This document shows positions 61,378 to 62,794 of a DNA stretch of 64,000 nucleotides, in pieces. Within the stretch, counting starts at the first letter, position 1. Every line of letters starts with the position of its first letter. Under the pieces are notes generated by a model. It had not been told where the DNA came from, searched no databases, and saw nothing but the letters and a program-made list of their open reading frames with translations. Position numbers and translations under genes: made by a program. This DNA is from a phage. The stretch lies in the sequence record PZ386957.1; one strand, 5' to 3'.

Positions 61378-61405
61378 ATTATACAATACTATGTTACTTT
61401 GTCAA
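61378..61405 (-). promoter_or_regulatory. Early promoter cassette (TTGACA-16-TATAAT)
   Basis: Consensus hexamers. Confidence 0.7.
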
Positions 61406-62794
61406 CTCTTTTTCAAAAGATTTTACGATATACATGATGGTGCTCAATTCGGACGGTGCTACTGTCTCTGTGTAGCCATCCGGCATATCTTCTTTTGAGA
61501 TATAGGAAGTTTTACCTTTCATCGCTTCCTTGATTTTGTTCTCTAAGTCTAAGATCTTTTGTCCGTCTTGTAAAGTCAATTCATAAAAGATCTCGTGGTC
61601 GAACTTAGAAACGCGAGATTGTTGTCTCATCCTTTTGACCGCATCTTTATTTGTAATTCCAAATTTAACACCAACAAAAGAATTTTTGTATATTAATTTT
61701 TGTACATATAAACACCCACTTATAACAGTAGAATAACCAGATTTTGCGCAATTTGGACACCTGTGCCCATGAGAGACAAACTTATTATATGTGCTTTGAT
61801 ATAAGTGGTTATTTGGACACATGAATTCGATTTTCGTCTTCATCACCCCAATATATTTTCCACCAACAAACCTCAAAAATTTATGTTCTTTTGCAACAGA
61901 TTTTATTTCATCAACTACTGCTTCTTCTGTTTTTAAAGTCACCCCTTGACAAATCGCACATTTACTTCCTTTGATTAAAGAAGAAAATGACACAATATAA
62001 TCATGACCTTTTTCACATCTCATATTAAGTTTTGTTGTTACACCTTTATATTTTCCGCCAACAAAACCCAAAAAAGTATAAGACCCTTTTTTCTTGATGA
62101 TTTCTTTTATCGCTTCATTTTCGTTTCGACGAATTCCACCATAGCAAAACTCGCAGCGACATTTTTTGATGACGTTGGATACTTTTCTGTTATAGATGTG
62201 ACCTTCTTTACACATTAAAGATACTAATAAATCGGATGTAACCTTATCTTTATTGTTTTCTACACACAATACTGTATCATTCGTCGAAGTTGCCAATCGA
62301 TTTAATAATTCTTTTTCTTGTATTCTTTTTTCCTTACCGATTTTATTGTAGAAGCATTTAGCACATTTACGTCCACTTATATATGAAATATATGACGTTT
62401 CATATATATGTCCTCGGTCACACATAACACGAAGTTTCGTTTTTGTAGATCCTATATATTTTCCACCAACAAATTCAATAAATTTATAGTCGGTTCTTTT
62501 ATCTATGTTATTTCTAGCTTTATGTTCACTAATAGGATTCCTGTTTGAATTCGCGCATCGCAAGCATCTTTTTCCTTGAGATAAAGATGTTATTGTCGTT
62601 TCGTATAAGTGTCCATTTGAGCACGTTAATGAAATTTTAGTTTTACTACCCTTCCAATCATCAATAAACCCGTTAAACGTATAATTGTTATCTTCGCACA
62701 TTTTAATGATCATTTGTTCATATTCTTTCGGTGATTTAGCCAGCCCATGCAGCTTTTTTACTTGTGCGTCTTTATAAAAATAAGTTTTCATCAT
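61394..62794 (-). CDS. Protein with five tandem zinc-ribbon repeats and C-terminal T5orf172/GIY-YIG-like domain
   Basis: 466 aa from ATG at 62794 (GGAGGA RBS; track start at 62830 lies inside the promoter -10). Five ~47-aa repeats F(L/I)xFVGGKYxGxxTK...CxxGHxY...GxxCxxC; C-terminal GCLYVQKLIYKNSFVGVKFGITNKDAVKRMRQQ. Confidence 0.7.
   Translation of the reverse strand: MMKTYFYKDAQVKKLHGLAKSPKEYEQMIIKMCEDNNYTFNGFIDDWKGSKTKISLTCSNGHLYETTITSLSQGKRCLRCANSNRNPISEHKARNNIDKRTDYKFIEFVGGKYIGSTKTKLRVMCDRGHIYETSYISYISGRKCAKCFYNKIGKEKRIQEKELLNRLATSTNDTVLCVENNKDKVTSDLLVSLMCKEGHIYNRKVSNVIKKCRCEFCYGGIRRNENEAIKEIIKKKGSYTFLGFVGGKYKGVTTKLNMRCEKGHDYIVSFSSLIKGSKCAICQGVTLKTEEAVVDEIKSVAKEHKFLRFVGGKYIGVMKTKIEFMCPNNHLYQSTYNKFVSHGHRCPNCAKSGYSTVISGCLYVQKLIYKNSFVGVKFGITNKDAVKRMRQQSRVSKFDHEIFYELTLQDGQKILDLENKIKEAMKGKTSYISKEDMPDGYTETVAPSELSTIMYIVKSFEKELTK

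Follow-up and report, generated by a model that had tools for sequence, protein, structure and literature searches.

A putative homing-type endonuclease with CapR-type zinc fingers and a T5orf172-type domain downstream of gene 32 in a Krischvirus-type phage

We analyzed a 64,000-nt stretch of phage DNA (sequence record PZ386957.1, hereafter the window), which is of the Krischvirus type, that is, an RB49-like, T4-type coliphage, as judged by DNA similarity. On its minus strand, at 61394..62794 and downstream of gene 32, lies a gene for a 466-aa protein in which five CapR-type zinc fingers precede a T5orf172-type, GIY-YIG-like domain. We propose that its product is a site-specific DNA endonuclease of the homing type, free-standing and belonging to the "CapR-finger + T5orf172" class, and we put the probability of this reading at roughly two in three. 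Nuclease activity, and with it homing or exclusion, is what we infer for the protein.

The C-terminal domain (residues 354-466, 61397..61735) has the order beta-beta-alpha-beta-alpha-alpha, including the beta-beta-alpha-beta-alpha core of the GIY-YIG fold. An initial annotation of this DNA had pointed to a C-terminal G-x-x-Y-V...KFGIT...R segment, and this motif is present from G360 to R388 (G360-x-x-Y363-V...K377-F-G-I-T381...R388). NCBIfam gave no direct assignment of the domain, and a PDB sequence search with the whole protein and the domain profile returned nothing meaningful. The domain profile did retrieve 51 proteins. We scanned 44 sequences, namely 42 of these together with the window and T5.141 domains, and found matches at E ≤ 1 to MUG113 in 25, to T5orf172 (PF10544) in 21, and to GIY-YIG in seven. 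One retrieved protein, P0061, passed the gathering thresholds of both PF10544 (24.0 bits against 20, over 97 of 101 model positions) and PF13455 (26.6 bits against 22.3); a second, P0073, scored 21.9 bits with PF10544. In BLASTP, the window domain matched P0061 at 38% identity (E 2e-18) and P0073 at E 3e-9. Structure searches of BFVD matched the domain to many phage "CapR homology domain-containing" proteins, as well as to proteins named "GIY-YIG domain," "homing endonuclease," and "T5 Orf172 DNA-binding domain." Because its homologues pass PF10544, a transitive link, and because the structure matches agree, we assign the domain to the T5orf172 type. It is best described as a predicted divergent member of the GIY-YIG clan, on the T5orf172/MUG113 branch, and the earlier proposal that the finger array is fused to a GIY-YIG-related T5orf172-type domain stands on this basis.

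Ten residues are invariant in the family (Y363, K377, G379, R388, Q392, E418, K422, G440, E443, and T444), and all are intact in the window protein. Y363 lies in strand 1, R388 in helix 1, and E418 in helix 2, and these three probably correspond to the GIY-YIG catalytic positions. Cleavage by the nuclease Odn of phage ICP1 needs the corresponding Glu (PMC8263062). An exhaustive phmmer search among 1.84 billion sequences returned 414 cluster representatives at E ≤ 1e-3, and almost all of the matches listed are proteins of ~250-620 aa that carry the domain at their C-terminus or close to it.

The remainder of the protein is dominated by five tandem modules, whose first cysteines fall at residues 58, 125, 195, 260, and 326 and whose CxxC motifs fall at residues 77, 144, 214, 279, and 346. 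A hidden Markov model (HMM) built from the repeats of 41 other proteins recovered all five, set against 200 shuffled arrays with a top score of 7.9 bits. The modules are, from the N-terminus, module 1 (residues 22-84, 62543..62731; ligands C58, H62, C77, and C80; independent E-value 1.7e-27), module 2 (residues 89-151, 62342..62530; C125, H129, C144, and C147; 3.7e-18), the degenerate module 3 (residues 158-220, 62135..62323; C195, H199, and C212/C214/C217; 2.1e-8), module 4 (residues 224-286, 61937..62125; C260, H264, C279, and C282; 5.1e-20), and module 5 (residues 290-353, 61736..61927; C326, H330, C346, and C349; 5.4e-20), all on the minus strand. Module 5 abuts the nuclease domain with almost no linker. 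The five tandem repeats that had been noticed initially are thus significant by repeat detection. Their length had been given as ~47 aa; we measured a period of 65-70 aa, with modules of ~63 aa. The pattern proposed for them, CxxGH...CxxC, holds in part, since the fifth module reads CxxNH and module 3 has CxC-x2-C ligands.

Modules 1, 2, 4, and 5 share the metal-ligand pattern C-x3-H-x14-C-x2-C, of which module 3 carries a variant, and across 45 proteins and 145 repeats the cysteine columns are nearly invariant. Pfam identified the array as CapR (PF21817; 3.1e-25, 88.6 bits against a cut-off of 24.2, in four stretches) and as DUF4379 (PF14311, "probable treble clef"; 2.9e-14, 53.5 bits against a cut-off of 24.5). 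The ligand set of the window fingers is CHCC, whereas CapR itself has CxxC...CxC. The array is basic, with an isoelectric point of 9.5 and 64 K/R against 34 D/E. Among themselves, modules 2, 4, and 5 show 47-53% identity, and they have DNA repeats of 49-68 nt in common (module 2 carries repeats D1/D3), which are traces of internal duplication. The best matches of module 3 to any repeat have 22-33% identity. We also observed a 16-nt motif (reverse complement TTTGTTGGTGGAAAAT or a close variant; repeat family D4) at 61663-61678, 61855-61870, 62050-62065, and 62458-62473. It codes for F-V-G-G-K-Y in finger modules 2, 4, and 5, and strand 2 of the nuclease domain has it once more, as F-V-G-V-K-F; this recurrence may be due to chance or may mark a recombination-prone patch.

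An AlphaFold (AF2) model built with 45 homologues had a mean predicted local distance difference test score (pLDDT) of 87 over the full length and a predicted template modeling score (pTM) of 0.40. This combination would mean well-folded beads on a string, with their mutual orientation undefined; within the array, module 3 had a pLDDT of 42-60. In the model, modules are laid out as helix, strand, strand, a Cys...His turn, strand, short helix, and CxxC. The first ligand pair sits in a hairpin turn and the CxxC starts a helix in modules 1-3 (module 1, for example, is predicted as a helix and three strands with the CxxC at a helix N-terminus); no helix was called after the CxxC in modules 4-5. 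Foldseek with the whole model against the PDB found nothing at E ≤ 0.001, a multidomain model being a poor query. The fingers had been labeled zinc ribbons at first, but Pfam and the model point instead to a CapR or treble-clef-like finger, which appears to suit the modules better.

CapR domains have been reported to bind DNA in a sequence-specific manner (PMC8096241; bioRxiv 10.64898/2026.02.23.707548). The fingers of the window protein probably bind zinc and DNA, and the array as a whole would read a long, allele-specific DNA sequence. DNA binding of this kind might also serve regulation: the protein could be a sequence-specific DNA-binding regulator similar to PLE CapR or CasPR, with a C-terminal domain that no longer cuts. 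These share the CapR zinc-finger module with the window protein, their DNA binding is experimental, and repressors do occur among CapR-domain proteins. CapR is a repressor found in phage satellites and descends from nucleases of ICP1 (PMC8096241), and a 2026 preprint describes CapR+AP2 proteins as anti-CRISPR repressors (bioRxiv 10.64898/2026.02.23.707548). The T5orf172-type domain was itself first labeled "DNA-binding." Among GIY-YIG enzymes, I-TevI autoregulates. However, PLE CapR and CasPR are transcriptional repressors with one or two CapR modules, and the known CapR repressors have no nuclease-type domain. The window protein keeps every family-invariant nuclease residue, including the Arg and Glu needed in Odn, and its nuclease C-half is 97% conserved among alleles. 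We regard a purely regulatory role as very unlikely.

The architecture had initially been taken as novel. It was in fact described in 2023 by Barth, Dunham, and Seed as that of the "T5orf172 HEGs" (homing endonuclease genes; PMC10448857); RefSeq names the homologues RB49p240 and phi1p240 "endonuclease"; and the window protein matches PHROG 681, "endonuclease," at 1.4e-85. According to Barth et al., 87% of T5orf172 HEGs have at least one CapR/DUF723/DUF4379 finger and often several, the repeats numbering as many as six, and their repeats recombine and their binding and nuclease modules swap (PMC10448857). The members of this class in ICP1 (gp165/gp174), Vibrio phage Helene, 184E37, T5-like phages, and Aeromonas phages resemble the window gene in having one to six N-terminal fingers and a C-terminal T5orf172 domain, in standing free beside essential genes, and in their variable presence, frameshifted or truncated copies, and module shuffling. 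In tblastn, 88% of the window protein aligned with Vibrio phage 184E37 proteins, at 27.8% identity (E 2e-32). Unlike these genes, the window gene has a domain below the PF10544 threshold, resides in a T4-type Krischvirus, and occupies a promoter-flanked slot with dozens of alleles. The text of PMC10448857 does not mention RB49, JSE, Phi1, or Krischvirus. We found no paper on this locus, and a study of RB49 and phi1 (Arbiol et al. 2010, PMC2839356) is silent on it. The window gene is a new, very divergent case of a described class, with an array unlike any known one.

The nearest relatives are RB49 ORF240 (RB49p240), Phi1 ORF240 (phi1p240), and other Krischvirus alleles, which share the locus and the promoter context. 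Their nuclease C-halves are 90-100% identical to that of the window protein and their whole proteins 36-47%, with two to six fingers compared with its five. T5.141 has two fingers and the same domain and is 39.5% identical to the window protein; its 2004 annotation already notes a likeness to an RB49 ORF. ICP1 Odn (Gp88) likewise tethers a C-terminal T5orf172 nuclease to an N-terminal DNA-binding region and is the only relative with demonstrated cleavage, which is Glu-dependent (PMC8263062). It differs in that its DNA-binding region is a RepA_N domain copied from its satellite target, not zinc fingers, and in being a domesticated defense gene.

The gene had also been placed at the position of T4 segG. 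T4 has its segG upstream of gene 32, in the interval from gene 59 to 32, and has frd.3, frd.2, and frd.1 downstream of 32; the window gene is downstream of 32. T4 SegG and I-TevI do share with it the GIY-YIG superfamily fold and a "beads on a string" design of nuclease and DNA-binding parts, and SegG is likewise free-standing and beside gene 32. SegG brings about marker exclusion of gene 32 alleles. Seg and Tev proteins carry the nuclease at the N-terminus, whereas the window protein has it at the C-terminus, and the gene has neither the slot nor the N-terminal GIY-YIG domain of the Seg family. A relationship to Seg and Tev was rejected, as neither sequence nor profile similarity was detected (hhalign probability below 1%). 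The segG slot of T4 is filled differently in two relatives: genes 59 and 32 of Skers enclose an HNH homing endonuclease gene (L006:5229-5825), and MIZ4 has an HNH endonuclease gene directly upstream of gene 32 (L010:3558-3812), its far side lying beyond the stretch compared. The window ends before the 59/32 slot.

The order of features on the minus strand is gene 32, a terminator, promoter P1, the 466-aa open reading frame (ORF), promoter P2, a 109-aa ORF (hereafter ORF109), frd, and td. Gene 32, for the single-stranded DNA-binding protein, is at 62911..63879 (an ORF with annotated homologues; its allele is of the ECD7/G2248 type). It is followed by an intrinsic terminator stem-loop at 62881..62900, with an 8-bp stem containing six GC pairs and a T-run, which is kept in JSE and Phi1. 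The early sigma-70 promoter P1 (62822..62849), which drives the nuclease gene, matches the consensus at 12 of 12 positions: TTGACA at 62849-62844, a 16-nt spacer, and TATAAT at 62827-62822. ORF calling gave an uninterrupted frame over 61394-62830, and its first ATG (62830-62828) falls inside the P1 spacer. Because of this position, and with the ATG at 62794 standing 5 nt past a Shine-Dalgarno GGAGG (62801..62805, read directly from the sequence), the supported start is 62794, which gives the 466-aa length. Both the start and the length agree with the initial annotation. The appropriate annotation would be a CapR-type zinc-finger/T5orf172-family (GIY-YIG-like) putative homing endonuclease starting at 62794.

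Downstream, the second early promoter, P2 (61378..61405, also 12/12), drives ORF109, and the codons that close the nuclease gene (gag TTG ACA aag taa) supply the −35 box of P2. ORF109 (61017..61346, from ORF calling) lies beside frd in all Krischviruses examined and has no Pfam match. Its sequence diverges between an RB49 type and the type shared by the window and phiS, with 67-69% amino acid identity (compared with L007, L008, and L003) and 57-90% nucleotide identity in 30-nt windows; the adjoining frd is at 90-100%. An Rfam search of both strands of 60900-63100 gave just one sub-threshold, terminator-like match.

The gene behaves as a free-standing homing-type element: it is present or absent at one site in collinear relatives, occurs in truncated copies, and has a promoter of its own. 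Between gene 32 and ORF109, only 121 bp and a single promoter are found in JSE, and the window has 1444 extra bp. In MIZ4, the slot holds a truncated 182-aa nuclease, and other Krischviruses carry full alleles with two to six fingers. In ECD7, KFS-EC, and G2248, the slot holds an unrelated ORFan, also of 109 aa (L013:3039-3368, L009:1605-1934, and L011:3039-3368, respectively), whose end falls at or inside the −35 box of the downstream promoter. The ORFans of ECD7 (gp233) and KFS-EC (gp127) are 97% identical, and that of G2248 was assigned by equal position and length only. Relatives carry two to four copies of the nuclease family per genome. The 64-kb window holds no further copy; faint tblastn matches elsewhere in it were the portal and major capsid genes. 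A target site was not deducible from flanking polymorphism, there being no slot-empty partner with otherwise matching flanks.

The slot is bounded by a direct repeat, D2, of 71 nt and 75% identity, whose copies are 1444 nt apart. The upstream copy (62806..62876) spans an AT-rich region, the promoter, and the 5' untranslated region, and the downstream copy (61362..61432) corresponds to the single copy of the empty site in JSE. The JSE homologies on the two sides of the cassette overlap over 83 bp. The upstream element, with stem-loop, AT-rich tract, and consensus promoter, is of the promoter-early stem-loop (PeSL) type, and PeSL recombination has been proposed to shuffle cassettes in RB49 and phi1, with mini-circles (Arbiol et al. 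2010, PMC2839356). All parts of such an element are there on the upstream side, and the slot takes alternative cargo. The window cargo is a large nuclease gene, unlike the small ORFans in the PeSL cassettes of RB49 and phi1.

The nuclease gene could therefore be passive PeSL cargo: recombination between promoter repeats would drive the exchange, and the nuclease would play no part in its own spread or would act as a general stimulant of recombination. The arrangement of terminator, AT-rich region, and promoter upstream, a second promoter downstream, and a 71-nt direct repeat suits this explanation, as do the published PeSL model with its mini-circles (PMC2839356) and the unrelated ORFan of ECD7 and KFS-EC, which fills this slot and has a 3' end that overlaps the promoter in the same way; in ECD7, its stop codon lies inside the TTGACA of the duplicated early promoter. 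However, the downstream copy is a promoter only and lacks the stem-loop. Passive exchange also leaves unexplained both a multi-copy nuclease family with HEG-like decay and the extreme diversification of its arrays. We consider this explanation improbable.

That diversification is confined to one part of the gene. DNA similarity to other alleles ends at the start codon on one side and, on the other, at a sharp change-point at 61616/61617 (residue ~393) that was identical in five comparisons. Between them, a hypervariable segment (61617..62788), comprising the whole array and the nuclease N-half, has no usable DNA similarity to other alleles, whereas the 3' arm with the nuclease C-half (61394..61616) is 83-100% identical at the nucleotide level, mostly ≥90%, in all alleles compared. 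For 34 alleles (90% clusters) with a common C-terminal 68 aa, the median pairwise identity was 32% in the array, 57% in the nuclease N-half, and 97% in the C-half. None of them exceeds 35% identity to the window array. The closest of 5.8 billion proteins had 45-47% overall identity, and IMG/VR held no closer allele.

The flanks of the gene also differ in ancestry. Two gene 32 allele classes, ~81-85% identical in nucleotides, exist within Krischvirus, and in a comparison with L002, L005-L008, and L011-L013, the window gene 32 was 97% identical to those of G2248, Brandy, ECD7, and JK32 and 81-85% to those of RB49, JSE, and phiS. ORF109 and frd are phiS-like, mostly at 90-100%, and the first ~80 nt of gene 32 are again identical to phiS. 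With gene 32 from one lineage and ORF109/frd from another, the nuclease gene therefore stands at a recombination junction. The gene 32 region is a mosaic whose breakpoints lie at the nuclease gene and within gene 32, and the position of the junction fits the published view that such genes mark boundaries of genetic exchange. We rejected the idea that a unique, divergent gene 32 is linked to this nuclease, as ECD7 and G2248 have the same gene 32 type with an ORFan; JK32, with the same gene 32 type and a different nuclease allele, also contradicts it.

A fixed locus with a hypervariable array (34 alleles, 32% in the array vs 97% in the C-half) would also be expected of a domesticated weapon, that is, a nuclease directed against competing phages (marker exclusion) or satellites, whose array diversifies with its targets. 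Odn and the Odn-like T5orf172 proteins of coliphages set a precedent (PMC8263062; PMC10448857), and the consensus promoter implies early expression. Against such a role, the gene is dispensable, since JSE, ECD7, KFS-EC, and G2248 lack it or have other cargo in its place and MIZ4 has a truncated copy, and PADLOC found no match to a defense model. Nor does the array seem to have been borrowed from a host element: a blastn search of 5,426 complete E. coli genomes, at the nucleotide level only, returned nothing for the variable 1.18 kb, and on this result we rejected an Odn-like, host- or satellite-derived array. We judge domestication as a weapon to be unlikely.

If the gene is a homing-type endonuclease, as we propose, its action may be pictured as follows. 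The enzyme would be made early in infection from its own consensus early promoter. The five-finger array would read a long, allele-specific sequence and set the GIY-YIG-type domain, next to finger 5, onto the DNA. Co-infecting relatives without this allele would then be cut, probably in or near the region from gene 32 to ORF109, and recombinational repair would copy the cassette into the cut genome. The homology arms could be provided by the conserved promoter/terminator region on one side and by the conserved 3' 220 nt of the gene with the downstream DNA on the other. Recombination between the flanking promoter repeats, as in PeSL-type shuffling, may offer a second, nuclease-independent route of gain and loss.

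Several points weigh against the homing-type endonuclease. The PF10544 search proposed in the initial annotation as a check had no match on the window sequence: neither the protein nor its C-terminal 117 aa matched PF10544, PF13455, or PF01541 at E ≤ 10, and the T5.141 and Phi1 ORF240 domains likewise had no match to these three models at that threshold. In hhalign, the domain profile gave a probability of <1% and no alignment with T4 I-TevI and SegG. The catalytic placement of Y363, R388, and E418 is drawn from motif order and secondary structure. We found no zinc-finger T5orf172 gene with demonstrated activity, target site, or biased inheritance, and according to Barth et al. (2023, PMC10448857), the homing of T5orf172 HEGs is without verification by experiment. 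Finally, the flanking promoter repeats could by themselves explain presence and absence.

A more speculative extension, which we hold as rather unlikely, is that the slot is an arena of allele-against-allele warfare within the genus, in which arrays are selected for recognition of variable DNA in rival cassettes or of the rival gene 32 allele. Cutting, followed by repair through the promoter/terminator and 3' 220-nt arms, would then replace the rival cassette.

Other features of the window concern the genes beyond ORF109. The nrdA gene, which is a single 747-aa gene in RB49, is split into three ORFs at 55141-58788 on the minus strand. The first (535 aa) contains the ATP-cone, the ribonucleotide reductase N-domain, and the beginning of the barrel, with an intein N-splicing region at its end; the second (56171-57145, 324 aa) codes for an HNH endonuclease; and the third (345 aa) begins with an intein C-terminal splicing motif followed by the remaining barrel. 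The arrangement resembles a fractured gene in which a split intein is accompanied by a free-standing HNH gene. A 179-aa ORF at 54011-54550 (minus strand) combines HNH_3 and AP2 domains, a homing endonuclease architecture discussed by Barth et al. (2023, PMC10448857). The nrd-td-frd-32 block holds three nuclease genes in 9 kb: the HNH-AP2 gene, the HNH gene of nrdA, and the CapR/T5orf172 gene. Thymidylate synthase (58854-60086, minus strand, 410 aa) matches its Pfam domain in two stretches, the C-terminal one starting at residue 254 (model position 110), and therefore seems to have an internal insertion of roughly 140 aa. The td genes of RB49, Skers, and JEP8 are of about the same length, and the insertion appears typical of the genus.

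The locus indicates that Krischviruses carry the ICP1/T5-type nuclease class, which T4 itself is without. One promoter-flanked slot accommodates at least 34 alleles with a common nuclease half and almost unrelated arrays of two to six fingers. As Krischviruses are easy to grow and cross, the locus is a handy place for asking whether this class homes and how a CapR finger reads DNA; if the fingers are modular, the natural allele series would be a ready-made specificity library. Warfare between alleles, if true, would account for arrays of ~32% identity beside a nuclease half at 97%, for the change-point at 61616/61617, and for the junction between gene 32 and frd. It would also make the family a multi-finger nuclease system that is naturally reprogrammable, and pairs of alleles and targets could reveal its specificity code.

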